A stretch of DNA of 64,000 bases, from positions 2,458-66,457 of the IMG/VR virus record IMGVR_UViG_3300031760_000013; one strand, 5' to 3'. The stretch is from a virus. Lineage: Duplodnaviria; Heunggongvirae; Uroviricota; Caudoviricetes. A program made the translations under genes and the position numbers. The notes beneath the pieces are model-generated. The model had not been told where the DNA came from. It did no database searches and worked only from the letters and a program-made list of their open reading frames with translations. Of this stretch, positions 40,975-64,000 are shown piece after piece (positions within the stretch are counted from its first letter, which is position 1; every line of letters begins with the position of its first letter).

Positions 40975-42129
40975 CTATCCAGCAAGATCCTCTTTAATCA
41001 GTTTCTTGATGCTCCCGCAACCAAGCTTCTCACCAAGATAACCAACCAGCTCGTCAATTTTTCTGCCTTCAACCATCTTGTAATAATTATAGAGCCCGTT
41101 CATAACTTGGATATCCTCCAAATCCCACGGATTCCCGTTCTGCCTATCTTTCACATAGTTTGTGAGCATCGCCTGAAATCTGCGCTTAGTTTTATGCCCA
41201 ATAGTTATTTCGTTCTGCCCGTTAAGACAGCATCCAAGCAGAAAGTTATGTCCAGAAGAAGAACCGTACCTTGTCTTTGCGGTATTGAGCTGGAACGGCG
41301 CATTAAATGTTGCAAGTGAGCTGATAATTTCCTGCTCGATTTTTCTGAAGTCGAAATCATACCGAGACGAAATGATAAAGTCATCGGCATATCTCGTATA
41401 CACGAAGCGCTGCTTATCGAAATCCCTGAGTTCCTTCGATAGCTTATAGTCGATTGGAATCATCATGATGTTGGTTATCAGCGGAGAGATCGGAGTGCCC
41501 TGCGGAAGCCCGCCATTCAGAATTGCTAACTCAAGAGCAGATTCCAAAGCACTTCTTCCTCTTTCGGTCTTAACCACTTCAGAAAACGGGTATACCATAG
41601 AGAACATCTGCATGATAAATTCCAGAGTTGTGCTACCAAAGAAGTCATGCAGGTCATATTTACAAAACCACTTGCTCTCATTTGACTGATGACGCTTCAC
41701 CGCATCAAGCGTAGACCGTTTCTTGATATACGCAAAAGCCGATGTGTGATACAGCGCCTTACAATCATTCTCAAAAATACCTTTCAGTGTTCTAAGTGCG
41801 CTCATCAAGTCGTCTTCCGGCGCATTAATCTCACGAAGGCCGCCAGATTTTTTAGGAATATAAAACTTATAGTATGATTCCTGCCTTGGCTTAGATTTAA
41901 TTCTAGCCACTACATCTGATGTGTTAAAAGCTTCGAGCTTGAGGATGATGCGTCCAATGCTTATACCAAGTTTTCTTTCTACCCTATCAGACACATACTC
42001 CATTTCATAAGTACGTGTGTTTGTAAGATTCTCATTGATTACGCCTGGCGTAGTCGATGTCTGGAAGAGAAACTCCTCCAAAGTCATCTGGTGATACGTC
42101 GGCGGCATCTTGACAACGACATATACCAT
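40975..42129 (-). CDS. reverse transcriptase (retron-type, no maturase/endonuclease domains)
   Basis: 384 aa. RT motifs YIPKKSGGLREI (motifs 1-2), LPQGTPISPLITNIMM (motif 4, QGxxxSP) and YTRYADDFII (motif 5, YADD). GGGAGG RBS. Confidence 0.85.
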   Translation of the reverse strand: MVYVVVKMPPTYHQMTLEEFLFQTSTTPGVINENLTNTRTYEMEYVSDRVERKLGISIGRIILKLEAFNTSDVVARIKSKPRQESYYKFYIPKKSGGLREINAPEDDLMSALRTLKGIFENDCKALYHTSAFAYIKKRSTLDAVKRHQSNESKWFCKYDLHDFFGSTTLEFIMQMFSMVYPFSEVVKTERGRSALESALELAILNGGLPQGTPISPLITNIMMIPIDYKLSKELRDFDKQRFVYTRYADDFIISSRYDFDFRKIEQEIISSLATFNAPFQLNTAKTRYGSSSGHNFLLGCCLNGQNEITIGHKTKRRFQAMLTNYVKDRQNGNPWDLEDIQVMNGLYNYYKMVEGRKIDELVGYLGEKLGCGSIKKLIKEDLAG

Positions 42130-42157
42130 CTTATGTTCCTCCCTATTAAACTGTTAT

Positions 42158-42480
42158 ATAACTGTAATCTACGTGTGTGTGCCTGCAGGAACCGGGACCG
42201 TCTTCCTGGATCTGGAGTTGTAGTCTGCTGGCGAGCTCGCCATTACTGAGTAGCTTGTCATCGAGAAAGGAGCCTTGTTTTCCAAGATTTCGTATTTCTG
42301 ATGGCTAAGATTTTGCTACTAGGTCTTGATAAGACTCGATGACTGTGACAGCACGAGCAGCTGCTGGGTCATCGCTGCGGCGGAAGGCGTGCCCAGCCAT
42401 CGTTCACGCCTCTGCTCAAATCGTTACTTCCGCTTACAGCAAGAAGCACCATATTACTATGGTCATTGCATTACAGTTAT
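42158..42480 (-). ncRNA. candidate retron msr/msd-like non-coding RNA upstream of the RT
   Basis: A 323-nt non-coding region bounded by 11-bp inverted repeats ataactgtaat (42158-42168) and attacagttat (42470-42480). The downstream repeat lies 28 nt from the RT start, the a1/a2 geometry expected of a retron. The interior has a perfect palindrome tggcgagctcgcca and GC-rich pseudoknot-like stems. Confidence 0.35.
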
Positions 42481-42497
42481 GAAATTAGATTTCTAAA

Positions 42498-42752
42498 TTA
42501 TTCGTTTTCCAAAATCTCAAGCAGATGTTTCCCGTGATCGGTGATTTTCATATGCTTGAGCATAGATTCGCAGTGCTCGCTCTTGAAGAATTCTTTGATT
42601 TCCTTTTTGGAATAACCCCATTCATCGCGAGTTATCCGCGAATCCTTTCCCCTATTGCAAAGGTCGCGGTAATCGTCAGCTGCCTTCTGCAAAATTGCCA
42701 TGGCAAGCTGAGCTGCACCGCGACCCCGCAACACCTCTAACGATTCTGGCAT
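42498..42752 (-). CDS. hypothetical protein
   Basis: 84 aa; between the E1-like gene and the RT leader. Confidence 0.35.
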   Translation of the reverse strand: MPESLEVLRGRGAAQLAMAILQKAADDYRDLCNRGKDSRITRDEWGYSKKEIKEFFKSEHCESMLKHMKITDHGKHLLEILENE

Positions 42753-43423
42753 CAGAATACGTCCAGAATCCCACTAAAGCCATCGATCTGGCCGAACTTC
42801 CAAATACCTTCACCCTTAACAAACTTTATGTAATTGTTCACACACATCGCACAGATGAGGCGGACAGTTGTCACAACTCCGAGTGTAATTCCGCACGCGC
42901 TCACTGGAGTCTCGTTTTTTGCCTCTTCGTGTGAAAACTGCATAGAGTTCAGAAGGTTCTGGCGTGACTGGTAATCACTCCAGTCTGCCCCATACATCTG
43001 CGCTCCCGTTAGAGCCGTTCTCACGTCGAACACCGCTTTTAAGAAAGGGTGATCCATGTGCTGCTCAACAAATTTCCTGCGCAGTTCTATATTGTCCGGG
43101 CAAAGGAACACATACCCCGATAGCATTTTCCCCTGCCACCCTTCCGGTTTGATCTTGATCGAATCTTTTGCTTCCGGATTAATTTCCAGAATAAGATCCC
43201 GCAGCGCCTCGACCTTAAGCCTTCCGATATCCTGCTGTCTGAACATCTGGTTCACGATGTTGTGCTTTTCGACCTTGTCGAAATCATAAAGCGTCATCTT
43301 TGTAATGCCGCACCGAGCAAGATTTTCCGCGATTGTCGAGCCGACTGACCCGCAGCCGATTATATGAATCATCGCGTCATCTTTTTCCGGCTGGAAGAAT
43401 TCATAGCTTTTACTGAGATCCAT
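42752..43423 (-). CDS. ThiF/MoeB-family E1-like adenylyltransferase (minimal adenylation domain)
   Basis: 223 aa. HIIGCGSVGSTIAENLARCGITKMTLYDFDKVEKHNIVNQMF reproduces the E1 Rossmann GxGxxG plus the D.D.VE..N(L)xRQ nucleotide-binding signature. Confidence 0.6.
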   Translation of the reverse strand: MDLSKSYEFFQPEKDDAMIHIIGCGSVGSTIAENLARCGITKMTLYDFDKVEKHNIVNQMFRQQDIGRLKVEALRDLILEINPEAKDSIKIKPEGWQGKMLSGYVFLCPDNIELRRKFVEQHMDHPFLKAVFDVRTALTGAQMYGADWSDYQSRQNLLNSMQFSHEEAKNETPVSACGITLGVVTTVRLICAMCVNNYIKFVKGEGIWKFGQIDGFSGILDVF

Positions 43424-43424
43424 A

Positions 43425-43916
43425 TTACCCTCCGATCATTTCATTTGCTTCACGCAAACCATTACCAAGAGCTTCGAGCTCTTCCTCCGTAAACCTCTGC
43501 ACACAATCCCTGCTTTCGGAAAGCATATCCATCACCGTGCATTCTTCTTCCTCGACCTCGAAAGGATCGTACGGTTCAAATGGCTCTTCCTCTTCGTCAT
43601 CTTCCCAGGCGTCGTTTTCATCCGCCCAATCACGAACTTCGCCTTTCCAGTAATCAAAATCCGCCGGACGCCATTCGCCATAATATTCGTCATACTCATA
43701 GTAATCATAACCACTATTGTCACGATACCTATCAAGTATATTGAACAAATCTTGCCACGTGTTATCTCTGGCAAGATCGACAAGACTTTCATCGATAATT
43801 TCGTCACGCGAATCTGCAGAGATTACATCCTCAAGAAGATAGCAGCCGACATCGTCGCAGAACTGATTCAGGTCATAGAAATCATTAACGTCATCGATAA
43901 ATGTAGAACGATTCAT
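43425..43916 (-). CDS. highly acidic protein ending in Gly-Gly (candidate ubiquitin-like/sulfur-carrier-like partner of the E1-like enzyme)
   Basis: 163 aa with very Asp/Glu/Tyr-rich repeats (DYYEYDEYYGEW, EDDEEEEPFEPYDPFEVEEEE). C-terminus ...NEMIGG followed by the stop codon. AGGAGG RBS. Beta-grasp fold not verifiable by eye. Confidence 0.4.
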   Translation of the reverse strand: MNRSTFIDDVNDFYDLNQFCDDVGCYLLEDVISADSRDEIIDESLVDLARDNTWQDLFNILDRYRDNSGYDYYEYDEYYGEWRPADFDYWKGEVRDWADENDAWEDDEEEEPFEPYDPFEVEEEECTVMDMLSESRDCVQRFTEEELEALGNGLREANEMIGG

Positions 43917-43928
43917 ATTTTCCTCCTA

Positions 43929-44933
43929 TCAATAATAGAACCCGTCACTATACCCGAACGGGCCATACGGGTCGTCCATTTCATCGGCATAGATACCGGA
44001 TGCCCTGTATGGCGATCTGTCGGATTTTTTCTTCTCTTTTTTCTCGGAACGTTTGAATTTCTTCCCGAGATGTTTTTTCTTTGACTCGGGGTACTCCTTC
44101 TTTTCCTGCTTGTCCACTTGTGCCACCTGTACCTGCTTAGGTTGTTCAACCTTTGCGATCGGGGCCACAGGCGCAGGTTTTACCTGTTCTGGTTTCTGGG
44201 TATAATTATTTCTATATACGGACTGCAATTGTTCTTGATTTAAGTTGTACGCAGACCCGTTGTAATTCCCGTACTGCTGGTATGCCGGTTTATTTTCCGT
44301 GATCATTCCCTTTGCTTCACGCAAGAACTTTTCAACTCCGCATTCATCTTCGATCACGTTAACCGTCACGTCGGAAGTATCAAACATGACATTCTTTTTC
44401 ATGTCATAGATCTTATACATACATTCCCCGCGCTTGTTATAGATCATGAATATGTAAAACATCGTATCATCGAGTTGGCCGAGAAGCTTTTCATACAAAT
44501 CATTATCAGTTACCGATGGCGTAACTCCCATATTTACATGGGAATGCCCCTGCATTCTGATATTGTTGAATACCTCATCTTCCTGCTTCATCAACCATTC
44601 CTGGTACTTAATCTGATCTGTGTTGACATTCGCCGCGGAAACTACCTGCGGGTATACCAGAATGTCTGTGATATAATACTCGTCTTTCGTCTCATCTTCG
44701 CCACGATAAGCAAGCCCATGCCAACCAACTTCTTTATCACATTCCCTGATCAATGACGTCATTTTCAGCCATGCAATTTCGGTGAAATAAACCGTACATG
44801 GACGTTTTGTCGCCATCAATGCTCGATGAAAATCGATCTTGCCATCCATCAGCTTTGCAGATTTCAGGATACTTTCAAATTCCTGTCTCCACTGGCTGAT
44901 ATTATCCTCTGTTATCTTAATTGCTTTCGCCAT
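43929..44933 (-). CDS. JAMM/MPN+ family metalloprotease (JAB deubiquitinase-like) with Lys-rich C-terminal tail
   Basis: 334 aa. Exact JAMM motif HSHVNMGVTPSVTD (HxHx7Sx2D) with an upstream Glu (EVGWHG). C-terminal third is low-complexity and Lys/Pro-rich. Confidence 0.65.
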   Translation of the reverse strand: MAKAIKITEDNISQWRQEFESILKSAKLMDGKIDFHRALMATKRPCTVYFTEIAWLKMTSLIRECDKEVGWHGLAYRGEDETKDEYYITDILVYPQVVSAANVNTDQIKYQEWLMKQEDEVFNNIRMQGHSHVNMGVTPSVTDNDLYEKLLGQLDDTMFYIFMIYNKRGECMYKIYDMKKNVMFDTSDVTVNVIEDECGVEKFLREAKGMITENKPAYQQYGNYNGSAYNLNQEQLQSVYRNNYTQKPEQVKPAPVAPIAKVEQPKQVQVAQVDKQEKKEYPESKKKHLGKKFKRSEKKEKKKSDRSPYRASGIYADEMDDPYGPFGYSDGFYY

Positions 44934-46404
44934 TTGCAGTTGCCTCCCCTTCCTGCAGTTTCAGATATTCGATTGCTTCCTTCGGTTTTACTACGCTGCC
45001 ATCCGGCAGTTCAAAGCATTTATTGTTCGTGCTGTAATCGCTTATGCCATAAATCCTCTTGAAGAATTCACGCATAACGGTACCGTCCCCAAAGTTCAAA
45101 CTCTTGCATGATGCGATGCACTGTTCAATCGCGCCGATATAATCCCTATTTCTAAGGAACATATTAATCTGACGTTCGTAATTCCCGAGACAACGATATG
45201 CGTCAATGTGAGTATTCGGCATATAATCTCGGAATTCCGAGCCATACTCATACCCACCCATCGCACTGACATTACCTTCAAGACGGAAATGATATGCTGC
45301 ACAGAATCTGATCTTTATTGTCTGATCAATAAACACTGCACGCATCAGCTTTTCCATGTCTTCTTCCGGAATAATGTTGTTACACCCACGATCGTTCGGG
45401 CGATACATGAGACTGCGCTTATTCCCGATCATGCTCTCAGCAGCATCTTCGTCGAAATACTGGAGATAATCTTTCACAACGAATTCCATCACTGTATCAT
45501 CTACCTTCATTAGTGACAGTTTCCTATTGTTGATAAAGTACTGCATGATCTCAGATTCTTCATCGCCGCTTGCAAGCTTTGTTTCAATCCCCAGAAGAAC
45601 GGTTTCCTGGTCTCTTCTCTTACGCAGATATTCCCCAATTTCTTCGTTCAATCTTTCGATCGTCCTATCGATCTCACCGATATTATTAGCGACTTCCGTC
45701 CTGCGGAGACGCTCATATTTCAACTCAAACCCTCCAAGCATTCCCTTAATGCCTGCGGTTCTGAAATCGTAATGAGATGCGATCTGATCAACACACTCGA
45801 GATATCTGTCCGGCGTTTTCTCTCTGAGAGAATGAATCAGCGACATTTCCTCATCGGATACACCATTTTTCGGATCAAAATACCAAGGTAAGAACGCAAA
45901 TACACCACACTGCAGATAATGCATTCTGCGTGTGTCCATATTATCCGTGAAGATGTAAACGCTGCGTCGCTCAACATTCACATAACACAGAACTTTGAAA
46001 ACTTTCCGGTAAAAATCCGTGACCTTTGTTACGCGATGCCATCCCGCACACATGCTCTCGAGGTTGTTTTCGATCGCGTGGAATACCTTTTCCGACGCTT
46101 CGTCTGAACCAGTCGAGATGTTCTTAATAAACAGGATACCATCACCCATGCGATTAACATGAACACACTGATCGTTCGCAATAGTTTCCTCTGTCTTTGA
46201 CCGAACATCGCTTGGACGCATTGACTGTGAATAATACGAAAAAGTGAGGTTGTCATCCTCTCCCATTCTTGGCGCAACTAATGCACGCAATGTAGATATG
46301 AACGTGCTATCACCATTCACCATATCGCCCCAGATTTTCCCTCTGAAATACTCTTCCGCGAACGGTGTGGTCAGAGACGTTCCACGAATTAAGTCTCTAA
46401 ACAC
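44917..46404 (-). CDS. hypothetical protein (495 aa)
   Basis: Long ORF with no motif I can name. Confidence 0.45.
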   Translation of the reverse strand: MFRDLIRGTSLTTPFAEEYFRGKIWGDMVNGDSTFISTLRALVAPRMGEDDNLTFSYYSQSMRPSDVRSKTEETIANDQCVHVNRMGDGILFIKNISTGSDEASEKVFHAIENNLESMCAGWHRVTKVTDFYRKVFKVLCYVNVERRSVYIFTDNMDTRRMHYLQCGVFAFLPWYFDPKNGVSDEEMSLIHSLREKTPDRYLECVDQIASHYDFRTAGIKGMLGGFELKYERLRRTEVANNIGEIDRTIERLNEEIGEYLRKRRDQETVLLGIETKLASGDEESEIMQYFINNRKLSLMKVDDTVMEFVVKDYLQYFDEDAAESMIGNKRSLMYRPNDRGCNNIIPEEDMEKLMRAVFIDQTIKIRFCAAYHFRLEGNVSAMGGYEYGSEFRDYMPNTHIDAYRCLGNYERQINMFLRNRDYIGAIEQCIASCKSLNFGDGTVMREFFKRIYGISDYSTNNKCFELPDGSVVKPKEAIEYLKLQEGEATANGESN

Positions 46405-46617
46405 TTTTAAATCCTCCCTGATTTAATTTCCTTTTAGAGCCGATATCCGGAGTCGAACCGGACGGTATTTACCGTTCCTCACATCGGCATATAAAAACAA
46501 GTGGCGCGAAAGAAATCCCTTCATTATAGCGTGCCATCAAGCATGCCGGATTCCCAAGCGCCACTTGGAGTTACGATGTGTTATGATTTTCAAAGGCTCC
46601 AGTCGGAGCCTTATGTA

Positions 46618-52216: not shown

Positions 52217-53188
52217 TTATGCCGCAGGTGCTACGGTCTCGGCAACCGGAGCTTTTTCCGGTGTTGCAGGAGCTTCCGCCATGTCCTTATTTTCCGCGAC
52301 TCCGTACGGAGTTCCGCCGATGTTGGAATTATCCTGGAAGTCGTACGGAAGCTTGTTCATGCGATGGAAAGCCGCCGTATAAATCCCGTTGATAATGGTT
52401 TCCTCATTCTTCTTGGTATAAGAACCCCTCACACAGCCGTCAGAACCAGTGCCGACTTTTGCCGTGACAAAGATATCCTTGAGGAACTTGATATCAGCGC
52501 TAACAGCGTGAGGGATTTCCACGCCACGGAACATCATTCCCCAAATTTCCGTGAGCTGGTTCTGCAGTTTGGTGCTGGAGAAAGCCCCATCTTTCCCACG
52601 TTCCCAGCATCCACCCTTGGATGCAAGAGCCTCCATTTTTGCCCTGTAGGCATCGGAAACCCACTTTTCCTTGCGAGTAATGCCGTCAGTTCCCACCTTG
52701 TCCATTGCCATGAACTCCGCAAAAATCGTGCAGAGATTGGCAATCCCGTCAGACTCCACAGGATGCACCATCTTGATGAAGTCGTACGCAGAAATCCTGG
52801 AATAGACAGGGATCTCCTGCTTATTCTTGGTCGTCTTGGTCAGCAGCTGCCAACCTGCCTTGGAATCCTTTTTGGCTAAAAAGCCAACAACAGACTGGCA
52901 ACGGAGAAACTCCGCGTCTGCTTCTGCAGAATCCATGGAAGCAAGCTGCTCAAGCCGCTCCGTCTGCATCTCCTCATGGTACAGCTCAATAGCTGCATTG
53001 ACACGCTTGACGGCGGATTTCTCCTCATCGTCAGTATGCCCCTCTTTGCAGTAATCCACAAAGACTTTCCACTCCTGCCCAATATTGGCAAGAAACACGT
53101 CGGCATTGCCCTTGGACTCATCAAGCTGCAGAGCAACACGGATTTTTCCGGCTTCCTCATTCAGCTTTTCACGATTCATTTTCAACAT
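52217..53188 (-). CDS. hypothetical protein with Ala/Pro-rich C-terminus, likely highly expressed
   Basis: 323 aa; GC-richer codon usage; C-terminal AEAPATPEKAPVAETVAPAA. Confidence 0.45.
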   Translation of the reverse strand: MLKMNREKLNEEAGKIRVALQLDESKGNADVFLANIGQEWKVFVDYCKEGHTDDEEKSAVKRVNAAIELYHEEMQTERLEQLASMDSAEADAEFLRCQSVVGFLAKKDSKAGWQLLTKTTKNKQEIPVYSRISAYDFIKMVHPVESDGIANLCTIFAEFMAMDKVGTDGITRKEKWVSDAYRAKMEALASKGGCWERGKDGAFSSTKLQNQLTEIWGMMFRGVEIPHAVSADIKFLKDIFVTAKVGTGSDGCVRGSYTKKNEETIINGIYTAAFHRMNKLPYDFQDNSNIGGTPYGVAENKDMAEAPATPEKAPVAETVAPAA

Positions 53189-55082
53189 TGTAGTATCCTC
53201 CCAAATTTAATATGTGGGTGCAGTACACCCCTACATATCTTACATCACTGCAGGACATGTAGCGACATACTGTCCTGGATACTCTGATTTATAGCGCTGT
53301 CTCCCCCATTACGCCCGTGCTATTCTCTCACGACCGCTGTACCGCTGTGCTCTCTATTGTGCTCCATAACGTTATTCATACTTACCATCCACCGGCAGTC
53401 TATCAGGGCAGATTGACACATGAGTCAAGAGCATGTTTTGTGGATATAGTATCCCCCTGGTTTACTGTTGTCTACTCACATAAGAACATTGTTTCACTAT
53501 TGCTGATGACAGCTCATTACTCCAATTGCAATTATGCTTTTGTCATGTCACGTATGCGCTATGGTTCGGCTATGCACTGTCACTACATTTTTCAATAGTA
53601 ACTACAGCTGTTACCCTACGCTTTTTCGGATATAGACTTTTCAAAGTGCTCCAATAGTGTTTTGGATATTTCACTATTGTCCATAGATATAGTACACCCA
53701 TTGCGTTTAGCGTTACTCTACCAGAGAGCTTGTGCGATACTACCAGAGTATCCTATCACGCTATGGTTTAAACTATATCGGTTTTTCAAGCTGCTGCACT
53801 CTTTCAAGTACATCTACAGTATAGCACATTTTGATTGACTTGTCAAGAGTTTTTTTAAGTTTTTACTTTTGCACTCTAAACAAAAGAATGTAGAATTGTT
53901 TTCACAAGCTAATGTGTTATCTTTCCGCATGTTGTCTTTTGCTTTTTGTGCGTTTGCCTATAGTATCCCCATATTTGCCGAAGCAATTTTTTTTGCTATC
54001 TCAATCCACCGTCCACGCGTATGATTATACTATTGGCATAAGTATAAACTTTTCAATGTGCTTTAGCTGTTTTGTGCTCTCTTTCGATTGCATATACACT
54101 ATAACACATTTTCTTGAGTTTGTCAATAGTGAATTTTGATGATTCACTATTTTTTTCTGCTATCTGTATTCACTTTTCAAAGTGCTACCAAAACGAACCG
54201 AAAGATTTTTGCGGCTGGCTTGTTTTGATGGTGCTATGATAGCACATCAAGTCGTATTTGTCAACAGTTTTTTTCAATTTTTTTGATCACATTTGTTATC
54301 TTTATTCTCACGTCTGTTAACTATTATCTCTCTCACATCTGTTAACTTTTTCTTTCGTCTGTTAACTTTTGCTTTCGATTGTGCATTATGTGATTTTGCA
54401 CAATGGGAAATGGGCGGTGGTTTTGGTTTTCTAATAGTGCCAGGACCGGAAGAGCCAGGTAGTTGCTTTTTCTCCCACACCAACCAAATCTCAAAACTCA
54501 ATCTCACACCACCCAAAATCACCAATCACTCCGCGCAACCAACATTATGCCATAATTTCGCCCATTTAGCAACAGAGGTTAAGCCAAAATATTTTCCAAA
54601 AACAGAAGGGTTGTCTCAACCGCTATCCTGTTTTATTCCTCAACCATGGGTGCATAACCTTTAAATACACTCCCCTTTCGGTATTGGAAAAATTTTCTTT
54701 CTATAGGGATTGACTTTGCCTTTGCCTATTTGGTATACTCAGATCAACCTAAATAAATTACTTGCAGACAGAGGGTTTGACCGCCTCTGTCTCTTGTGTT
54801 ATTGGAGAGAAAACCGGTACATCAAAGTTGCCAAAAAAGTTCCGAATTTTGAAGTGTCATTTTCCATTTTGTACACGGTCTGTGTACAAAACCATTCTGA
54901 CTACCCCAGTAATTACTGGGTTTCTGAGGCTAGCCTTAAAAGAATAAGGAGGGAAGAAAAAGTGAAACCATCAAAAAAGTTCTGAATTCAAAGATTCTTC
55001 ATGGTAGTGTTTACTCAACAGCATAGTAGACCCCGTGAAATCTGTGTACAAAAATTAATAAACGGAGGTTGATAACCGAAAG
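53189..55082. promoter_or_regulatory. about 1.9 kb AT-rich non-coding strand-switch region with iterons and direct repeats (candidate origin and divergent regulatory region)
   Basis: No long ORF with RBS. Genes diverge from here (minus strand to the left, plus strand to the right). Contains three roughly 30-nt direct repeats (53821-53850, 54090-54130, 54238-54268) and three copies of tctgttaact. Confidence 0.55.
54305..54372. repeat. three direct iteron-like repeats C(A/G)TCTGTTAACT(A/T)TT
   Basis: tctgttaact at 54313-54322, 54338-54347 and 54358-54367, with 25 and 20 nt spacing. Confidence 0.6.
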
Positions 55083-56330
55083 ATGACAAACGGGCAGGAA
55101 ACAAATAGAATAAAGCCGATACGAATCATCGATGCCTGTATGGGTAGAGGCAAGACTTCAGCTGCAATAACATATATGGAAGAGAACCGAGGTTCGAAGC
55201 GTTTCCTTTATATTACTCCATATCTTGATGAGACAGAGCGGATATGCGAAGCGTGCGACTTCGAACAGCCGGAGAGCGATCACAGGACAAAGCTTGCTGA
55301 CCTGAAGAGGCTACTTCATCTTGGAAAGAATATATCCTCTACACACGCGCTCTTCTACTTATTGGATGATGCTGCGCTTGATTTGATAAGAGAGAAAGAA
55401 TACAACCTGATACTTGATGAGAGTGTAGAGATGATCCGCAAGGAAAACATATCGCAGAAGGACTTCAACCTGCTGAAAGAGAAGTTCGTATCAGTTGATG
55501 ACGCTGGAAAAGTAATTTGGAGAGACGGCACGTATGAAGGAAGGTTCTCTGATTATATGGAGATGGCGATGTCAGGATCACTGTTTATCAGAGACGGAGC
55601 GTTGATGTATGTTATGCGGCCTGACTTCCTCCAGTCATTTAACGAGATTATAATGATGACATATATGTTTGACGGGCAATACCAGAAGGCGTATCTCAAC
55701 TTCTTTGGATTTGAGTATAAGATATGCGGTATTGATTCCAAGCAGAGAAGCAATGGAAGTATGGAATTCAAGTTCAGTGACCTACCGGATGTCCCGCCGA
55801 ATGTAGACTATCACGGTCTCATCCACATTATAGATGAAAAGAAGTTAAATGAGATTGGCGATGGTAGATACGCCTTGTCGAAAAGATGGTTCGAGCGACG
55901 TGCTGCTGACTCTGATGATATTAAACAGCTTAGGGCTAACATCCGTACATTCTTCCAGAGAAGATGTGGCGCTGCATCATCGGATATCATCTGGACATGT
56001 TTTAAAGGGCAGCATGAGAAGCTGATTGAGAAAGGGCGGTATAGGAATTCGTTTTTGTCATTGACGCTCAGGGCAACCAATAAGTATAAGGATAAACATG
56101 TGGTCGCCTATCTTGCAAATAGATTTGTAGATCCAAACATAGTGAAGTTCTTCGCCGAGAAAGGCGTGTATATAGATAATGACGCATATGCGCTTAGCGA
56201 GATGCTTCAGTTTATTTGGAGAAGCGCCATTCGTGACGGCAACCAGATAACTGTGTACATCCCGAGCAAGAGAATGCGAGACCTCCTTGTTAAGTGGATT
56301 GAAGAAAGGAACAATGGAGGTGAGAGCTGA
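55083..56330 (+). CDS. P-loop NTPase (Walker A/B ATPase), function unknown
   Basis: 415 aa. Walker A DACMGRGKTSAAI near the N-terminus and Walker-B-like LILDES about 90 aa later. First gene of the plus-strand block, directly upstream of the RNAP-like gene. Confidence 0.5.
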   Translation: MTNGQETNRIKPIRIIDACMGRGKTSAAITYMEENRGSKRFLYITPYLDETERICEACDFEQPESDHRTKLADLKRLLHLGKNISSTHALFYLLDDAALDLIREKEYNLILDESVEMIRKENISQKDFNLLKEKFVSVDDAGKVIWRDGTYEGRFSDYMEMAMSGSLFIRDGALMYVMRPDFLQSFNEIIMMTYMFDGQYQKAYLNFFGFEYKICGIDSKQRSNGSMEFKFSDLPDVPPNVDYHGLIHIIDEKKLNEIGDGRYALSKRWFERRAADSDDIKQLRANIRTFFQRRCGAASSDIIWTCFKGQHEKLIEKGRYRNSFLSLTLRATNKYKDKHVVAYLANRFVDPNIVKFFAEKGVYIDNDAYALSEMLQFIWRSAIRDGNQITVYIPSKRMRDLLVKWIEERNNGGES

Positions 56331-56497
56331 TGAAGAAGTCTGAGAACTGGTACGACTACTATGATAATGATATCAATATCGATAAATACATAGAGGCTTG
56401 CCGGAAGGAATATAGAGAGGCCTGGTTCAGTGTGTTTGGAAAAGATGAAGATCTTTATATCTCGGATTATGATGATTACTATGAAGAAATGGAATGA
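56330..56497 (+). CDS. small acidic Tyr/Asp-rich protein
   Basis: 55 aa (MKKSENWYDYYDNDINIDKY...DYDDYYEEME); ATG overlaps the upstream stop (TGATG); below the 60-aa track cut-off. Confidence 0.35.
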   Translation: MKKSENWYDYYDNDINIDKYIEACRKEYREAWFSVFGKDEDLYISDYDDYYEEME

Positions 56498-56690
56498 ATT
56501 TTGCCATATCAACCTAATTAACTTATTTACTTCGTTAATAAACTGTATTTCCATGAGGTGATTTTTTATAAGCAAACAAATAGAACTGCAAAGGTATGTA
56601 TTTAAGATTCACAGCTCGAGGCTGCGTAAGAGTAACTGGAAGCTGACGCTCACTCTGGCTGACGCGCGAAAAAATGAAGAGCTGATATCG

Positions 56691-59291
56691 ATGGGCTCAT
56701 CACAGATCCTTAGATGGATTGACGAGCTGAATGGCATCACTGATGCAGACCAGCGAGCGAGGGACATCCGAGCTGAGATTCAGAGACTACGCAAAGATGC
56801 AAACAGTTCGATTACCAGGCGAGAGATTCGAAGGTTGTATTCGCAGCTCGACTCAATCCAGTTCAAACCTGATTATATGTGCCTTGTGATAGATCGCGAA
56901 AAGGATTACCGGCGTGCATGCAAAGGTTTCTCAATAAATGGTATAAGCTACTCACGCCTTCTTGGTACTGCTGGTGGAATCAAGAACAGCACGATTGTCT
57001 TTGTAAGCGACCGCTATCACGATGAACTTGTCAGGCGTGTAGATAACGGTAGAGATATGTCGCAGGAAATAGTGCCAGCGAAACTGGAGGCTTACAAAGC
57101 TTTGGCGTGCAGCGCGTCCATACCGGTATCTATGCCAAAAGGGATACTTGTAGTACATGACGTTGAAACTACATTCACGGCTGACACAGTCTATCTGGAT
57201 GACGAGAATGATGGCGAGCCTGCAATGAAGTTTGTCCCGGACACAGAGATCACGATGGATGCTACGGACGGGTTCGGTTTAATGCTCCCCTCTCTTGCAG
57301 AACGGTGGAGTGAGGAGTTGCGGCTTGGATATACAATGTCAGGTTGTAACACAAGATTCTCGTTCGAAAAAGGTATGGTGTATGCGTTTGACTTCATAGA
57401 GTTCGCAGAGAATGTCGCGCACAAAAGTATTGTCAAGGATGTCTGGGGTAACGATGTAGATATCCACGAGGTGGAACTTATATTCACTGAGAGCATGCTT
57501 AAGCTCTGGAATGCTTATAAGAGTTGCGACGATTATCTTGAGAACTGTATGGAGAATGGGTACACAATCGGTATACCGAAAACATGTCCAGAGAAACTTG
57601 AGAAGACGAGAACGCTAAACTACCAGTTTATCCAGAGTTATCACTTAGACGACGATGATATTAACGAGCTGATAGCTCCAACTATAAATGAGATTGAAGA
57701 GGTACTGAAGGATGATTGGCGAAAGACAGTGTTGTTTTTACGCGGGGCTGGGTTAAATGAGAGCAATGTCGACTATATTGATAATGGTTTTATCAAAGCA
57801 ATGATGATAGACAGTAGAATTGCTGACGACCCATATGTAAAAAACGCTGTGTATCAGCTGATAAAGAACAGAATCAATGAAGCAAAGATTGGGGTGTTGA
57901 ATGTACACGGGAACTACTCAATGATATCTGGTGACCCGTATACATTGTGTCAAGGAATATTTGGCCTGCCTGTCACAGGTTTATTGAAGGCTGGCGAAAT
58001 ATATAATAAGTTTTGGGTGGATTCTGCTGCAGAGAAGCTTGTTTGTTTCCGAGCTCCTATGAGTACCCACGAAAATATACGTGTGGTAAAAATAAATAGA
58101 GGTGACGATGCGCGGCACTGGTACCAGTATATGCAGACATGTACAGTGCTAAATTCTTGGGACACCATAACAATGGCACTTAACGGCGCGGATTACGATG
58201 GTGACCTTGTCATGCTTTCCGATAACGACGTACTAATCCGAAAGCATCGCGACCTCCCGACCATTATGTGTGTGCAAAGGAAAGCAAAGAAGATGGTCCC
58301 GACAGAACAGGATATTATAAACTCTAACATTGCAAGCTTTGGGAACGAGATCGGGCAAGTAACGAATCGTACGACATCAATGTATGAGGTGCAATCGCAT
58401 TTTGAACCAGACAGCGATGAGTATAGGACATTGAGCTATAGGATTATGTGCGGGCAACTCATTCAACAGAATGTTATTGATAAAACAAAAGGTATTGTTG
58501 CAAAGCCAATGCCAAAGACATGGTATGACAGACATTCTGTAAATCTGATCAGCGACGACGACGAAAGACGTTTTTACAGAAGGATTGTTGCAGACAGGAA
58601 GCCGGCGTTCATGCGGTATATATATCCAGAGCTTATGCGGCAATATAACACATACATAACGAACACGAATAAGAATTCGCTCCGTGAGTTCCAACTGACA
58701 ATTGACGAATTGAAGAGCATCCCATACGATGACCTTACAAGCAGACAGCTCGAGTTTCTACGGTACTATGATATGTATATGCCTGTTGGTACAGGCGATT
58801 GCGTTATGAATACTATTTGCAGGAAGGTCGAACAGAAGTTTGATGGATTTGTTGGCGCTGCATCAAAGAACTCCGAGTTTGATTATACGATTATGAAGAG
58901 CGGCACAAGTTATTTGCAGTGGCAGTATTATGCGATAGAGCGATTGCTCGATGATTATAATAAGAGACTACGCGACTACTCTATATTTTCAATGTATGAG
59001 CGAGAAGATAAGGCAGATAAAATTGATTCTATAAAAGTGATGAATGCACAGTTTGCCCGTGACTGTATGGACATATGCACGAATAGTAAACAGATGTGTG
59101 ACATTTTACTTGATCTTTGTTATAAGAAATCGAAAACGAAAAAATTTGTCTGGGATATATGCGGAGACCAGATAATAGAGAATCTGTTGGAAAAGAATAA
59201 CTGGATTATATCGTATCCGGAGTTAGATGAAAATGGTGAGTTGGCATATGGCGGAGAGCATTTCTCCATGCGAGAAAAGAAGGAGGTCTGA
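56691..59291 (+). CDS. YonO-like single-subunit two-barrel RNA polymerase (putative)
   Basis: 866 aa. Contains ALNGADYDGDLVML. DYDGD is the DxDGD metal-binding loop of double-psi beta-barrel RNA polymerases (compare NADFDGD of the multisubunit beta-prime subunit; shared by YonO of SPbeta and the eukaryotic RNAi polymerases). Confidence 0.55.
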   Translation: MGSSQILRWIDELNGITDADQRARDIRAEIQRLRKDANSSITRREIRRLYSQLDSIQFKPDYMCLVIDREKDYRRACKGFSINGISYSRLLGTAGGIKNSTIVFVSDRYHDELVRRVDNGRDMSQEIVPAKLEAYKALACSASIPVSMPKGILVVHDVETTFTADTVYLDDENDGEPAMKFVPDTEITMDATDGFGLMLPSLAERWSEELRLGYTMSGCNTRFSFEKGMVYAFDFIEFAENVAHKSIVKDVWGNDVDIHEVELIFTESMLKLWNAYKSCDDYLENCMENGYTIGIPKTCPEKLEKTRTLNYQFIQSYHLDDDDINELIAPTINEIEEVLKDDWRKTVLFLRGAGLNESNVDYIDNGFIKAMMIDSRIADDPYVKNAVYQLIKNRINEAKIGVLNVHGNYSMISGDPYTLCQGIFGLPVTGLLKAGEIYNKFWVDSAAEKLVCFRAPMSTHENIRVVKINRGDDARHWYQYMQTCTVLNSWDTITMALNGADYDGDLVMLSDNDVLIRKHRDLPTIMCVQRKAKKMVPTEQDIINSNIASFGNEIGQVTNRTTSMYEVQSHFEPDSDEYRTLSYRIMCGQLIQQNVIDKTKGIVAKPMPKTWYDRHSVNLISDDDERRFYRRIVADRKPAFMRYIYPELMRQYNTYITNTNKNSLREFQLTIDELKSIPYDDLTSRQLEFLRYYDMYMPVGTGDCVMNTICRKVEQKFDGFVGAASKNSEFDYTIMKSGTSYLQWQYYAIERLLDDYNKRLRDYSIFSMYEREDKADKIDSIKVMNAQFARDCMDICTNSKQMCDILLDLCYKKSKTKKFVWDICGDQIIENLLEKNNWIISYPELDENGELAYGGEHFSMREKKEV

Positions 59292-59292
59292 T

Positions 59293-60060
59293 ATGGCAAT
59301 CATTTTAAATGAATACAAATGGGCAGAAAATGCTATACAGGAAAAATCATTAGGGCAGAAACCGATAGAGACTTTAACCCGTATAGCAAAATATTACATA
59401 CAAAATGGTGCAACAAAAAATGATACGAGGAAAATGCTTGATCTGTTCCTGCTGTCATGTGACGCATCTGTATCTCTTGTGAAGTGGGCAGAACGGTTAG
59501 ATAGTATTGTAAAGTATGCAGCAAAGTATCCGCTGATCTCCATTGACCATGTCAGTGTGTCATCTCTGGAGCTTGCCAAAATAAAAGAACTACAGAGTGT
59601 CCAAGTTCAACGCTTGGCGTTCACTCTTTTGTGTATCGCGAAGTTCAATCACATGATAAATGATAAGAACGAATATTGGGTGAATACATCAGATAATGAA
59701 GTGATGAAAATGGCAAATATCGGGACATCTATTAAGCGTCAGAGTCTGATGTATTCCAAGCTTCGTGATGCAGGTATGATTCGCTTTTCCAACAGGGTTG
59801 ATAGCCTAAGTGTACAAGTGCTATTTGTTTGTGGTGACGACGGGGAGATCAAAATATCAGACTTCAGGAATTTGGGGTATCAGTATTTAATGCATGATGA
59901 TGATCGTGGTATATACAAAGTGTGTGAAAATTGCGGGATAACCTTCAAGGCGAGGCAACCGCATACACCCGGGAGACCAAAAAAATATTGTGATAGTTGC
60001 GCTATAAAAGTGAAAATGAAGCAGAACGTGGACTCTATAATGCGTTTAAAATATAAATGA
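59293..60060 (+). CDS. hypothetical protein with C-terminal zinc ribbon
   Basis: Start moved to ATG 59293 behind RBS AAGGAGG (the track ORF starts inside the RNAP gene). C-terminus CENCGITF...CDSC. Confidence 0.45.
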   Translation: MAIILNEYKWAENAIQEKSLGQKPIETLTRIAKYYIQNGATKNDTRKMLDLFLLSCDASVSLVKWAERLDSIVKYAAKYPLISIDHVSVSSLELAKIKELQSVQVQRLAFTLLCIAKFNHMINDKNEYWVNTSDNEVMKMANIGTSIKRQSLMYSKLRDAGMIRFSNRVDSLSVQVLFVCGDDGEIKISDFRNLGYQYLMHDDDRGIYKVCENCGITFKARQPHTPGRPKKYCDSCAIKVKMKQNVDSIMRLKYK

Positions 60061-60201
60061 TGAAATGCATTTTATAAAAAGTAGGAAATAATTAAATACA
60101 GCGATGGCCGGAAATTAGCGGCGTCGCTGTATTTTTGATGTACTGTTAATAATGGAAGGATATATCAGCAAATGTCTTTCTAACAAAAATGAAGAAAAGG
60201 A

Positions 60202-60441
60202 ATGATATTTATAGTACTTATTACAAAGGCCGAAAAGAAGGCGCTGAGCGAAAGATTTCCAAAGGCACAGTTCGTGCGTACTATGGTTCAGAGATCTGAC
60301 CGTGGTCATTATTATTGTGTCGAGGAACCGTACCTTATGAGAGCACTGCGCGATCTGAGACGCGAGAATGTCATAGAGGAGTATCCGCCTCGCAAGAAAG
60401 AAAAGAAGTATTGGGGCAAGAACAATAATGCTAATAGATGA
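60202..60441 (+). CDS. hypothetical basic protein
   Basis: 79 aa ORF. Confidence 0.35.
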   Translation: MIFIVLITKAEKKALSERFPKAQFVRTMVQRSDRGHYYCVEEPYLMRALRDLRRENVIEEYPPRKKEKKYWGKNNNANR

Positions 60442-61636
60442 TCTCTCTAGACGCGCTGGTGAGTCAGAGCTTGAGTATCATAAACGCCTTGTGTACGGGA
60501 AGCTTGTTGATAAAACTCTGTCTGACGTAGACTATCCAGAACTTGCCGAAGCTGTATACGGTAAACAATACTCTAGCGACACGGCGCGTCGTATGTGTTA
60601 CGGGAGTAAATACACTCTTGAGTTAATGGATGATGCGCTCGATAGTGCTATTGCTTCTAAGAGCAGCGCTGATGTGATTGCTGATCTGGAAAGTAAAAAG
60701 ATTGAGCTTGCTAAAGAGCGTCAGAAATTTTTTGATCAGCGCACTGCCTACAATAAACTACTTCGTGATCGTGCGCGTGAGGAAGAGCTCAATGAAATTA
60801 TAGAGCGCTGTATTTCAAATGGAGATCTGCCGGAACTTAACTATGAGAGCCACATAGATGTTTCTGGTAACAATGATTTGCTTGTATCGTTGAATGATAT
60901 TCACTACGGCGCAAACATTGATAATGCATGGGGACGGTATAATTCTGCAATTTGCGCACGAATGATGAATGAGTATCTTGATAGGGTTCTCAAGATAGCC
61001 GATACGCATCAGAGCGAGAACTGTATCGTGTGGTGTGCTGGTGATGCAATTTCTGGGAAGATCCATAGATCTATCCAAGTTACGAATAAAGAGAATATTA
61101 TTGAACAGATTATGGGCGTATCAGAGTTGATCGCTGAGTTTTTGGCTGTTTTGAGCAGGCATTTTAATACTGTCCGTTTTGTGAGTGTCGCTGGGAACCA
61201 TAGCCGGATCGAAGACAACAAAGAGAATGCTGTTACTGGTGAACGGCTTGATAATCTTGTCGAATGGTATCTAGCGGCAAGAATGCAAAACTTTGATAAT
61301 GTGATAATTACAGACGATCACAAACTTGACCAGACGATTTCTGTGTTCCAAGTACGTGGTAAGAACTATGTCATGGTTCATGGAGATTATGACACGCCGA
61401 GCAAAGTTCAAGCATTACAGGCTATGATTAAGGAGCCTATATATGCAGTTCTTTGTGGACACTTGCACCATAATCAGACCGATGTTGTACAGGGTATTAA
61501 AACGATTATGGCAGGAAGTTTTCAGGGGGTAGATTCTTTTTGTGTAGAGAAACGTATTTACGGCACGCCGCAACAGATGGTTTGTGTGTGCGACGAGAAT
61601 GGAGTTGTATGCCACTACGATGTTGAATTTCAGTAA
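60428..61636 (+). CDS. calcineurin-like metallophosphoesterase (SbcD/Mre11-like nuclease candidate)
   Basis: 402 aa. Motifs in order: VWCAGDAISGK (GD), AGNHSRIE (GNH), MVHGDYD, LCGHLHHNQ (GHxH). Confidence 0.55.
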   Translation: MLIDDLSRRAGESELEYHKRLVYGKLVDKTLSDVDYPELAEAVYGKQYSSDTARRMCYGSKYTLELMDDALDSAIASKSSADVIADLESKKIELAKERQKFFDQRTAYNKLLRDRAREEELNEIIERCISNGDLPELNYESHIDVSGNNDLLVSLNDIHYGANIDNAWGRYNSAICARMMNEYLDRVLKIADTHQSENCIVWCAGDAISGKIHRSIQVTNKENIIEQIMGVSELIAEFLAVLSRHFNTVRFVSVAGNHSRIEDNKENAVTGERLDNLVEWYLAARMQNFDNVIITDDHKLDQTISVFQVRGKNYVMVHGDYDTPSKVQALQAMIKEPIYAVLCGHLHHNQTDVVQGIKTIMAGSFQGVDSFCVEKRIYGTPQQMVCVCDENGVVCHYDVEFQ

Positions 61637-61642
61637 AGGAGG

Positions 61643-62680
61643 TTGTGCATAATGGGACGAAAGACAAAAATGACTAGAATCACTAGTCCAGAAAAGATGG
61701 CTTTGATAAACAAAAACAATATCAGGCTCAAAGATGAATTTTTGATGTATCTGAAATCCATCCAACGAAGCCCTGGCACGATCACCGGATACGATAGTGA
61801 CCTGACAATTCTGTTTACATACATACTGGATAATTATGACAACAAAGATTTCCAGCAGCTAAGCAAACGAGACCTGATCGGATTTCAAAACTGGATGGTA
61901 ACGAATGGAAATTCAAGCTCACGAATCAGGAGAGTAAAAGCTGCTATCAGCTCCTTGTCGAATTACTGCGAGAACATATTGGCTGACGACGACCCTGATT
62001 TCGACGGGTTCAGATCTATCGTGAGAAAGATTGAGAACCCTCCTCTTCAGCCGGTCAGAGAAAAGACTGTGCTCGAAGATGATGAGCTTGGGCTTTTGCT
62101 TGACAAGCTTATAGAAAAGAAGCAATACAAGAAAGCTTGTTGCCTTGCACTTGCTATGTATAGCGGTAGACGGAAAGCGGAGCTTCCACGATTTCGCGTT
62201 GAGGATTTTAGCGATGAGCGGCTTGTATGCGATGGTGCACTATATAAAAGCTCACCGATTCAAACCAAAGGGAGGGCAGGTGGAAAGTACCTCGCTTGCT
62301 ATACTCTGGCAAAGAAGTTTAGCCCCTATCTTGATTTATGGATGAAAGACCGAGAAGAGCAAGGGATAGAGAGTGAATGGCTCTTCCCTTCTGCAACTGA
62401 TACTAGCAAACCGATGGGTATATCAACGCTGAATAGTTGGGCAAAGACTTTCTCTGCTATCCTGCAGAATGATTTCTATTGGCATGCCATGAGGCACTAC
62501 TACACAACGTGCCTGACCAGAGCAGGTATCCCAGACGGTGTGATTCAAAGTATTGTTGGTTGGGATTCTGCAGACATGGTCAAGGTCTATAAAGATATTG
62601 ATGCTGATGAAGAGATAGGAATGTATTTTAAAGATGGTGATATCTCCGTTCCGGATAGGAAAGGATTCGGAGATATATAG
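61643..62680 (+). CDS. tyrosine recombinase (phage integrase family)
   Basis: 345 aa. N-terminal core-binding-type domain; C-terminal WHAMRHYYTT (HxxR) and IVGWDSADMVKVY (catalytic Tyr). Confidence 0.7.
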   Translation: MCIMGRKTKMTRITSPEKMALINKNNIRLKDEFLMYLKSIQRSPGTITGYDSDLTILFTYILDNYDNKDFQQLSKRDLIGFQNWMVTNGNSSSRIRRVKAAISSLSNYCENILADDDPDFDGFRSIVRKIENPPLQPVREKTVLEDDELGLLLDKLIEKKQYKKACCLALAMYSGRRKAELPRFRVEDFSDERLVCDGALYKSSPIQTKGRAGGKYLACYTLAKKFSPYLDLWMKDREEQGIESEWLFPSATDTSKPMGISTLNSWAKTFSAILQNDFYWHAMRHYYTTCLTRAGIPDGVIQSIVGWDSADMVKVYKDIDADEEIGMYFKDGDISVPDRKGFGDI

Positions 62681-62696
62681 AATGAAGGGATGATAT

Positions 62697-63161
62697 ATGA
62701 CAAAAAAGGAAATGGCTTCGGCGGTAGCTGGCGTCCTTAGGGAGCGAGGTGTGCGAAAGCCGGTCAGTATTCCAAAACATAAATTCACTATTATCGCTCC
62801 AGATGGTGACAGGGCAGATTTTACAGTCAAGCAAAGCGATATGGAAGTAATATATACCGTAAATGATGTATCGATAATCATCGATGCTATATGTGATACA
62901 ATTGTTGACGCTCTGAAAAGTGGGGACAATATCTCTATTTATGACTTTGGTACATTAAGGTTACATAGGCGCGCTGCACGTAAAGTGAAGCAGCCTGGCA
63001 CTGAGACTTGGTATGATGTCGAGGAAAGACTAGTACCAAAGTTCATTTATGGAAAGAGATTATCTATGGCTGCACGTTCATATGAATTAATTATGAATGA
63101 CTTAGATAAAGAGAAAGAAATAGACAGCGATTTCGACATCGACGAAATTGGTGATGAGTAA
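62697..63161 (+). CDS. HU-like DNA-binding protein with internal insertion
   Basis: 154 aa. N-terminal KKEMASAVAGVL and later DFGTLRLHRRAARKVKQPGTETWYDVEERLVPKFIYGKRL match the HU arm (GFG.F...R.AR.G.NP.TGE...I....VPKFK.GK). An insertion of about 35 aa sits between helix 2 and the arm. Confidence 0.55.
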   Translation: MTKKEMASAVAGVLRERGVRKPVSIPKHKFTIIAPDGDRADFTVKQSDMEVIYTVNDVSIIIDAICDTIVDALKSGDNISIYDFGTLRLHRRAARKVKQPGTETWYDVEERLVPKFIYGKRLSMAARSYELIMNDLDKEKEIDSDFDIDEIGDE

Positions 63162-63163
63162 TG

Positions 63164-64000
63164 GCTGATATAGAAATGAGAGCCTCAACTTCCGTATGCA
63201 GGAAGTGCGGCACTGCGTATTCGCAATTAAAAGGTAACTTTCCTGTTTCGTACGGATATCTTTATAAGGGCGTTGGGTATTTGCCTTACTGCAAAAGGTG
63301 TGTTGAAGGCATTTATGCAGATTATCTATCTGAGTGCAAAGATCCAGAAAAAGCAGCTAGACAAGTATGTAGGAAGCTTGATATCTACTGGAATGCAAAA
63401 ATCTTTGATAACGTATCTAAGAAAGATACAACGAGGTCCGTTATGACAACATATTTGTCAAAAACGAATTCGATGAGCCATGCTGGTAAATCATACGATG
63501 ATACATTGCGCGAAGAAAATTCACTGTGGAAATTTTCATACGCCAAAGAGCGTGGCAAACAAGAATCTATTCCAGTTACAGTTGCGGTCGAAGAACCGAC
63601 AGATGAAGTAATTGCGTTCTGGGGCCCCGGCTATACGCCTGAGATGTATGCGGAATTGGAACAGAGGTTACAGTATTACAGATCGCAGATGGGAGACACT
63701 CAACAGGATATGGGCACAGATGCGCTTTTGCGGCAAATCGTTATGCTTGAGATAGATATTAACAAGGCGCGGGCAGAAGGACGAGACGTCGATAAGAAGA
63801 TGTCGACGTTTAACTCGCTCTTGTCATCTCTCGTGAAGCCGATGCAGAAAAAAGAGGATATGAGTTCCAGTGTTACCAACACTCCGTTCGGAGTATGGAT
63901 TAAACGTTGGGAAGACGAAAGACCTGTCCCAGAAATAGACGACAGTCTCAAGGATGTAGACGGAATCATCAAGTATATCTTGACATGGGTATACGGCCAT
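63164..64000 (+). CDS. hypothetical protein with N-terminal zinc ribbon (partial; runs off window end)
   Basis: Open frame from ATG 63164 to the window end with no stop (at least 279 aa); CRKCGTAY...CKRC. Confidence 0.45.

Follow-up and report, generated by a model that had tools for sequence, protein, structure and literature searches.

A YonO-type two-barrel RNA polymerase in a predicted SPβ-like phage, with a candidate partner protein and a promoter-like element

The 64,000-nucleotide stretch of viral DNA analysed here, which we call the window, changes the sign of its GC skew at about 54 kb. The minus-strand arm that occupies 1–54 kb carries genes for replication and nucleotide metabolism, among them those for a DNA polymerase, NrdD, a DnaB-like helicase and RtcB, and the plus-strand arm that follows carries the gene of interest, whose product we refer to as the RNAP (Table 1). 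An identical RNAP protein is found on a 113-kb metagenomic contig, where the plus-strand arm consists of a YonV_C protein, a 55-aa ORF, the RNAP, a 255-aa protein and, after a gap, a 79-aa ORF, a metallophosphoesterase, a tyrosine recombinase, HU and a YonG_N protein, then proteins of 592 and 509 aa (terminase- and portal-sized) and a YonD_N protein; the terminase, portal and YonD-like genes lie past the window's end. This gene order is kept in relatives at 62–70% identity and is the SPβ arrangement around yonO, and the precomputed Pfam match to YonV_C is present both on the identical contig and in the relatives. The contig is that of an SPβ-like phage of about 113 kb. Relatives of the RNAP occur in genomes and metagenome-assembled genomes of Clostridia (Oscillospiraceae, Acutalibacteraceae, Ruminococcus and an Anaerocolumna xylanovorans isolate). 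This host range and the SPβ-like gene order agree with the description of the source as a Firmicutes-type phage in an earlier reading made from the letters of the DNA (the sequence-only reading). A megablast search of 14 kb against phage records returned no close relative, and the source databases attach no names to the proteins of this locus.

Table 1. Features of the RNAP locus and related sites in the window (barrel bounds are approximate)
Feature	Position	Strand	Basis
Candidate second copy of the bipartite element, TTGATG-GCACGCTAT-AATGAAGGG	46517–46540	−	strict pattern match
Sigma-70-like promoter, TTGACT-18-TATACT with upstream TG	54710–54739	+	consensus scan, 10/12 matches
YonV-like P-loop protein, 415 aa, GRGKTS and LILDES; first gene of the conserved module	55083–56330	+	phrog_2467, E=1e-64
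Small 55-aa ORF of conserved position, 48–57 aa in relatives	56330–56497	+	called genes in four loci (L005–L008)
Shine-Dalgarno GAGGTGA and ATA codon, probable non-canonical RNAP start	56555–56570	+	upstream codons open, in frame, conserved at protein level
First (beta-like) double-psi beta-barrel, ~aa 144–266; D193 at 57267–57269, R222 at 57354–57356, K227 at 57369–57371	57120–57488	+	strand-rich model block
Second (beta-prime-like) double-psi beta-barrel, ~aa 404–527; R454-A-P456 at 58050–58058	57900–58271	+	model, conservation
NGADYDGD, catalytic metal-binding loop	58182–58205	+	aligned to YonO DNDGD and RDR2 GGDLDGD
QQNVIDKTKG motif at the end of a long helix, aa 576–598	58464–58493	+	conservation, model
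255-aa partner: helical N-domain, winged helix ~aa 100–190, C4 zinc ribbon	59293–60060	+	
Intrinsic-terminator-like hairpin CAGCGA...TCGCTG with T-run, ending the RNAP operon	60099–60137	+	hairpins of other sequence at the same place in relatives
Bipartite element TTGATG-N10-AATGGAAGG, candidate phage-RNAP late promoter, heading the late genes	60135–60159	+	conserved position
Hairpin whose 5' arm is box B, GGAAGG	60153–60182	+	−10.3 kcal/mol, z = −4.4
Start of the downstream same-strand cluster: 79-aa ORF, then metallophosphoesterase, tyrosine recombinase, HU, YonG-like	60202–64000	+	
Metallophosphoesterase	60428–61636	+	
Tyrosine recombinase	61643–62680	+	
HU	62697–63161	+	

Counted from its first ATG, the RNAP ORF runs from 56691 to 59291 on the plus strand and encodes 866 aa, with NGADYDGD at residues 498–505 and its aspartates at D501, D503 and D505; translation of the window returns ORF and motif exactly as the sequence-only reading had given them. 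Upstream of this ATG, however, the 43 adjoining codons (56562–56690) are in frame, stop-free and encode FFISKQIELQRYVFKIHSSRLRKSNWKLTLTLADARKNEELIS, which matches the N-terminus of 914-aa relatives. Every sampled relative has at least 41 open in-frame codons in this place, and most have a GTG or ATG 41–44 codons upstream of the RNAP ATG. Within this stretch there is no ATG, GTG or TTG in the window and in at least nine other loci. A strong Shine-Dalgarno sequence, GAGGTGA, lies at 56555–56561, and an ATA codon follows 7 nt further on, at 56568. Because the upstream codons are open and conserved, offer no canonical start and are preceded by a Shine-Dalgarno sequence in front of the ATA, translation probably begins at this ATA, 123 nt upstream of the ATG, which would give a product of about 907 aa (56568–59291). 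Alternatively, a 1-nt error in the T6 run at 56562–56567 may be hiding a GTG start.

It is informative to compare this protein with the eight residues that Ruprich-Robert and Thuriaux listed as common to all two-barrel polymerases, which in QDE-1 are D709, R738, K743, R962, P964, D1007, D1009 and D1011, the last three in a DYDGD loop (PMC2919709). The window RNAP has all eight at QDE-1 spacing: D193, R222 (29 residues on), K227 (a further 5), R454-x-P456 and the D501/D503/D505 triad. R222 is conserved to at least 90%, and the other seven without exception, both in an alignment of 57 sequences, which takes in YonO, PMBT24 and BUCT082, and in one of 86 sequences. The triad is thus invariant among diverse homologs and falls on the DNDGD of YonO, in keeping with the earlier view of DxDGD as the catalytic loop; the 3D>3N mutant of YonO is inactive (PMC5467207). 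Further along the chain, the QQNVIDKTKG motif has a Q592 that is at least 90% conserved and an I596, D597 and K600 that are invariant in the 86-sequence alignment, and its site is the second insertion hot spot among homologs. The helix that ends here may be the equivalent of the bridge helix.

The family to which the protein belongs is readily recognized. Pfam PF05183 (cellular RdRP, QDE-1 family) matches residues 66–567 with 56.2 bits (E=3.3e-15), above the gathering threshold of 23.8, and BLASTP aligns YonO over 509 residues at 26% identity (E=4e-26), so that homology to YonO, as the sequence-only reading had supposed, is direct. With the RNAP as tblastn query, yonO is found in NC_001884 at E=8e-20, and a search of phage genomes recovers yonO of SPβ and of all its relatives (26%, E about 1e-20). 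The same search gives full-length matches at 38.6% identity in Clostridium phage c-st, at about 40% in Enterocloster phages and at 28.8% in Bacillus phage BUCT082. At E<=1e-3 an exhaustive search counts 1,777 family representatives (50% identity level), and at E<=1e-30 it counts 533; a word-indexed search gave scores for over 4,159 proteins. The best PHROG families all carry the label 'unknown function', NCBIfam has no model for the RNAP, and the homologs of PMBT24, TR-TP1 and Perkons are annotated in their records as RdRP. That the c-st gene is YonO-like has already been published (PMC7824862). Given so large a family and this precedent, the RNAP gene, by its sequence, is a further representative of an already known family of YonO-type enzymes and adds a member rather than a new kind.

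Structure prediction and profile comparison point the same way. A search of PDB sequences with the single RNAP sequence gave no match; with the family profile, RDR2 and QDE-1 are found at E-values of 1e-5 to 2e-3, the profile's sDGqG...iRnaFiKG lying on SDGIG...IRYGGYKG and its gaDfDgD on the GGDLDGD of RDR2. The AlphaFold2 model built from the 86-sequence alignment has a pLDDT of 93.0 and a pTM of 0.87. When compared by Foldseek with PDB structures, in a library that held no YonO structure, it places maize and Arabidopsis RDR2 and QDE-1 on top (E 2e-17 to 5e-13, TM about 0.5), followed by the Thermus-phage RNAP 8f72 and then, with weak scores, by subunits of the beta-prime/Rpb1 type; its only strong structural neighbours are RDR2, QDE-1, gp66 of crAss phage phi14:2 and the Thermus-phage RNAPs. 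On this model the RNAP is a protein with two double-psi beta-barrel (DPBB) domains and a member of the two-barrel superfamily. The structure prediction and the alignments with YonO and QDE-1 that the sequence-only reading had proposed as checks both bear it out: the high-confidence model has a two-barrel fold, the DNDGD of YonO falls on DYDGD, and the shared residues keep their QDE-1 spacing.

The closest known system is YonO of the Bacillus subtilis prophage SPβ (PMC5467207). The two polymerases share the position of the D-x-D-G-D loop and both barrel motifs, both are phage-encoded on the same strand as HU and structural genes and upstream of them, and both phages have YonV-, YonG- and YonD-like neighbours. 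They also differ in several respects. The 26% identity is detectable only over residues 78–565, the host is Bacillus for YonO and Clostridia for the window phage, and the window RNAP has a conserved N-terminal arm of about 41 residues with an apparently non-canonical start codon. Furthermore, YonO carries a C-terminal zinc ribbon itself, whereas in the window this falls to the separate, translationally coupled 255-aa winged-helix protein. Among cultured phages the closest relatives are c-st and the Enterocloster phages (PMBT24, CB457P1 and others), at 38–40% full-length identity and with the same RNAP/partner pair. In c-st, 317 nt similar to a group I intron split the gene within the codons for DMD|GD, whereas the window gene is uninterrupted; Rfam gives a sub-threshold group I intron match on 371 nt of the c-st insertion (20.4 bits against 50) and nothing at 4.5 kb. 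What these comparisons show directly is the enzyme class, the fold, the synteny and the conservation of the catalytic residues.

More distant two-barrel enzymes are of different kinds. QDE-1 and RDR2 (PF05183) are RNA-silencing enzymes that use RNA templates and have about 13–15% identity to the window RNAP; the phage context and the biochemistry of YonO would argue against such a silencing role and point to DNA-templated transcription. The sequence searches that we ran detected no similarity to gp66 of the crAss-like phage phi14:2 or to the RNAPs of Thermus phages P23-45 and P74-26, and virion RNAPs of the crAss-like and P23-45-like types have only the fold in common with the window RNAP. Whereas gp66 and gp96 are packaged in the virion as domains of giant proteins, the window RNAP, of about 900 aa, is free-standing and would be made after infection; it is not a module within a giant virion or tail protein, since its 866–907-aa gene stands by itself in a non-structural operon.

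The 255-aa protein has a particularly close association with the polymerase. Its ATG lies 1 nt past the RNAP stop codon, its AGGAGG lies within the 3' end of the RNAP gene, and its gene is directly 3' of the RNAP gene in 100 of 100 loci. The zinc ribbon is formed by C211, C214, C233 and C236 (nt 59923–60000), and hhalign places residues 208–240 on residues 795–823 of YonO, the YonO zinc ribbon, with E=1.9e-4; the window RNAP chain itself lacks a C-terminal C4 ribbon of this type. NCBIfam yields only an insignificant match for the partner, far under the cut-off. Because the ribbon is on a separate protein, the RNAP may not be sufficient as a single chain without its partner, for which we propose the role of a candidate promoter-specificity partner.

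Just past the terminator of this operon lies a bipartite element that recurs at an equal position in 34 distinct relatives, where it consists of box A (TTGATG or a variant), 9–10 nt that include TGy, and WATGRWAG, set within flanks that are not alignable. The strict pattern has 2 matches in the window against 0.09 expected, a count equalled in 2 of 100 shuffles, and of its 18 matches across 106 loci, 16 are at the post-terminator position. As a position weight matrix the element has low information, and only the site at 60.13 kb scores above shuffled controls. Unlike the window's consensus sigma-70 promoters, the element at 60135–60159 has no −35 hexamer at the proper distance. The hairpin that begins with box B reaches −27 kcal/mol in the clade with 47–49% identity and is frequent in relatives with differing stems; it is absent or weak in many others, so that we reject it as a universal feature and make no claim of covariation. 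The other strict match in the window, on the minus strand, lies about 50 nt past a terminator hairpin (46612–46593) and about 115 nt upstream of a gene for 495 aa (44917–46404), and the genes that follow it are not obviously structural.

It is also worth considering this element in light of what is known of SPβ. Forrest et al. 2017 (PMC5467207) showed that YonO is strictly DNA-dependent as an RNA polymerase and that 37 SPβ late genes need it, with a start site upstream of yonK for which the published coordinate is 2225998. The SPβ sequence sought in the genome collection for conversion of this coordinate had no match there, and the start site is therefore placed here by the published primers rather than by an exactly mapped coordinate. 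The P_YonO primer-extension primers lie at 5910–5933 and about 6127–6153 of the SPβ locus (L001), a bracket of 193 nt within which CATTTATGAGGG is found at about 6040; a further copy, CATTTATGAAGG, lies 160 nt upstream of it. We infer from the letters that the element at 60135–60159 resembles CATTTATGAGGG of the mapped YonO start-site interval. BUCT082 has TAGTTATGGTAAG past the terminator of its own partner gene; its polymerase has a separate partner gene and only 25% identity to YonO, and the phage shares the SPβ leader, with about 95% of nucleotides identical along most of the alignment and a mean of 91% for the alignment as a whole. The 515-aa protein encoded upstream in BUCT082 has no homology to the 415-aa YonV-like protein of the window.

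The window also contains promoters of the host type. The sequence-only reading had drawn support for a phage RNAP from conserved upstream elements, and this part of it is not supported if the prominent 44-nt repeats at 53.8–54.3 kb are the elements meant. On the minus strand these repeats are three promoters close to the sigma-70 consensus, in which TTGACA is separated by 17 nt from TATAGT, TATCAT or TATACT and a TG lies upstream in every case, so that they are host-RNAP early promoters and are rejected as promoters of the phage enzyme. By sequence, the element at 60135–60159 is the better candidate for that function, with host sigma-A or a phage sigma-like protein as another possible reader of it. 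The sigma-70-like promoter at 54710–54739 is a candidate for driving the RNAP operon through host RNAP. As a separate observation, weak Sigma70_r4 matches are seen for a protein encoded by one relative (L006).

Taken together, these data lead us to propose, with a probability of roughly 80%, that the gene encodes an active single-chain two-barrel RNAP of the YonO family in an SPβ-like temperate phage of gut Clostridia of about 113 kb, and that this enzyme transcribes the late genes from DNA without host sigma factors. Host RNAP would transcribe the operon of the YonV-like ATPase, the small ORF, the RNAP and the partner from sigma-70-type promoters and would halt at about 60.1 kb, where the terminator lies; the phage RNAP would then initiate just past it and proceed rightward through the structural and late genes. 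Catalysis would depend on D501, D503 and D505 in the beta-prime-like barrel and on D193, R222 and K227 in the beta-like barrel. Both the DNA-templated activity and the late-gene role are drawn by analogy from YonO, and most likely the RNAP is what switches on the late genes of this phage. The likeness to YonO amounts to 26% identity over about 56% of the length, and both the Pfam family and the nearest structures that have been solved belong to RNA-dependent enzymes.

This last point makes it natural to ask whether the protein might instead be an RNA-dependent RNA polymerase that copies or amplifies RNA rather than phage DNA. The matched Pfam family is named 'RNA dependent RNA polymerase', RDR2 and QDE-1 are the best structural neighbours, the loop is identical to the DYDGD of QDE-1, and the PMBT24, TR-TP1 and Perkons homologs bear the RdRP label. 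We nonetheless regard this as quite improbable: those annotations are automatic transfers of the Pfam name, the gene belongs to a dsDNA phage and heads a late cluster as yonO does, and YonO, the only characterised phage member, strongly favours DNA templates (PMC5467207). That DYDGD arose by chance as an acidic patch of some unrelated protein can be dismissed almost entirely, as the entire 64-kb window, translated in six frames, contains a single D.DGD, the three aspartates are invariant columns in the alignments of 57 and 86 homologs, and fold and homology are established.

A two-barrel polymerase might likewise serve some purpose other than late transcription, for example replication priming or the synthesis of a regulatory RNA. 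The module adjoins the replication and early region, the recombinase, phosphoesterase and HU genes precede the structural genes, and the second copy of the element precedes non-structural genes, all of which would suit such a role. However, the DnaB-like helicase and other replication proteins are separately encoded, the gene order around yonO and the SPβ late operon is preserved, and deletion of yonO specifically silences the late genes (PMC5467207); we thus consider a non-late role unlikely and retain late-gene transcription as the preferred reading.

To our knowledge, among the relatives of the ancestral two-barrel polymerase in bacterial viruses YonO alone has been studied biochemically. 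The family around it is large and common in phages of gut Clostridia, with 1,777 clusters at 50% identity, and most of its members either lack an annotation or are wrongly labelled as RNA-dependent polymerases. The assignment of one more polymerase brings by itself no new principle. Since the searchable literature holds no description of a YonO promoter or cofactor, any novelty would lie only in the partner and the promoter-like element, both of which we put forward as hypotheses. Tentatively, and at less than even odds in our estimation, YonO-type polymerases may be two-component machines in which the winged-helix/zinc-ribbon protein acts as a specificity or initiation factor that reads the ~25-bp TTGATG-N9-10-WATGRWAGG element after the operon terminator, with transcription starting at or near the box-B hairpin, and of which SPβ YonO would keep only the fused ribbon. 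The comparative data thus provide concrete candidates for the promoter and the specificity factor of YonO-type enzymes, and a two-component arrangement, if true, would answer the question posed in 2017 of how YonO finds its promoter.

Homologs of the phage RNA polymerase gene, which encodes a YonO-type two-barrel enzyme, carry two interruption hot spots, both lying within the most conserved motifs. The interruption at the catalytic loop of the gene from Clostridium phage c-st (L002) gives a sub-threshold match to group I introns that includes the GGUAUAGUCU core, and one relative, L105, is interrupted at both hot spots. In many database proteins of this family the sequence stops near residue 501 or near 597, or begins at 508, and in PHROGs the family is divided at the first of the hot spots. 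Unlike the homologs of c-st, L098, L100 and L105, the polymerase gene of the window is uninterrupted.

Within window 56555-56690, this gene appears to use a non-canonical start, an ATA codon at 56568 that is preceded by a strong GAGGTGA. Starting there would give the polymerase an N-terminal arm, basic and conserved, which gene callers leave out. The same position is occupied by ATA or CTG in several relatives and by GTG or ATG in others. Weak initiation could hold down the amount of polymerase made.

Features of the window and of the polymerase loci of its relatives (a slash marks the point of interruption).
Feature	Locus	Position	Strand	Detail
First hot spot	c-st, L105	D-x-D/G-D codons		
Interruption	c-st (L002)	7549-7865		317 nt, inside D-x-D/G-D codons
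Interruption	L105			~303 nt, inside D-x-D/G-D codons
Second hot spot	L098, L100, also L105	I596/D597		
Interruption	L098	3616-4784		1.17 kb, at I596/D597
Interruption	L100	4789-5100		312 nt, at I596/D597
First leftward gene	window	52217-53188	-	323 aa
44-nt repeat	window	53818-53846, 54098-54126, 54236-54264	-	three copies; consensus sigma-70 promoters
TCTCACRTCTGTTAAC units	window	54302-54370		three in tandem; divergent control region
Gene cluster	window	40975-46404	-	behind second element
ThiF/E1-like protein	window	42752-43423	-	in gene cluster
Reverse transcriptase	window	40975-42129	-	in gene cluster

The divergent control region (window 53400-54400) is dense with repeats and holds no open reading frame of at least 100 aa. 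Besides the 44-nt repeat, TATAGACTTTTCAAAGTGCT and GATATAGTATCCCC each occur there in three copies, and the tandem TCTCACRTCTGTTAAC units may be operators. A search for family matches to the product of the first leftward gene returned none; at the equivalent position in a related locus (L006, 5618-6490) lies a protein with weak Sigma70_r4 and faint ECF matches. The promoter-like element that is the candidate late promoter for the phage polymerase might instead be read by a sigma-like factor of the phage.

A second terminator and a TTGATG-N9-AATGAAGGG element (46517-46612, minus strand) lie upstream of the minus-strand gene cluster, whose members include unknown proteins of 495, 334 and 163 aa. 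This cluster could be a retroelement or conjugation-like accessory cassette that shares late-gene expression control. On the plus strand, the region after the polymerase module and before the genes for YonG, terminase and portal includes a metallophosphoesterase matching an SbcD-like exonuclease PHROG, a tyrosine recombinase and an N-terminally extended HU-like protein (60428-63161), a trio kept in every relative examined.

It is also worth comparing SPβ with Bacillus phage BUCT082, whose polymerases are only 25% identical and of which BUCT082 has a separate partner gene (winged-helix and zinc-ribbon protein) whereas SPβ does not. Their late-operon leaders (L001 5790-6160 and L004 7400-7775, respectively) are nonetheless ~95% identical over most of the alignment, a likeness that sets in abruptly ~50 nt before the first CATTTATGAAGG. 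That such similar leaders accompany such divergent polymerases indicates modular exchange of polymerase cassettes or else a promoter core common to both phages.
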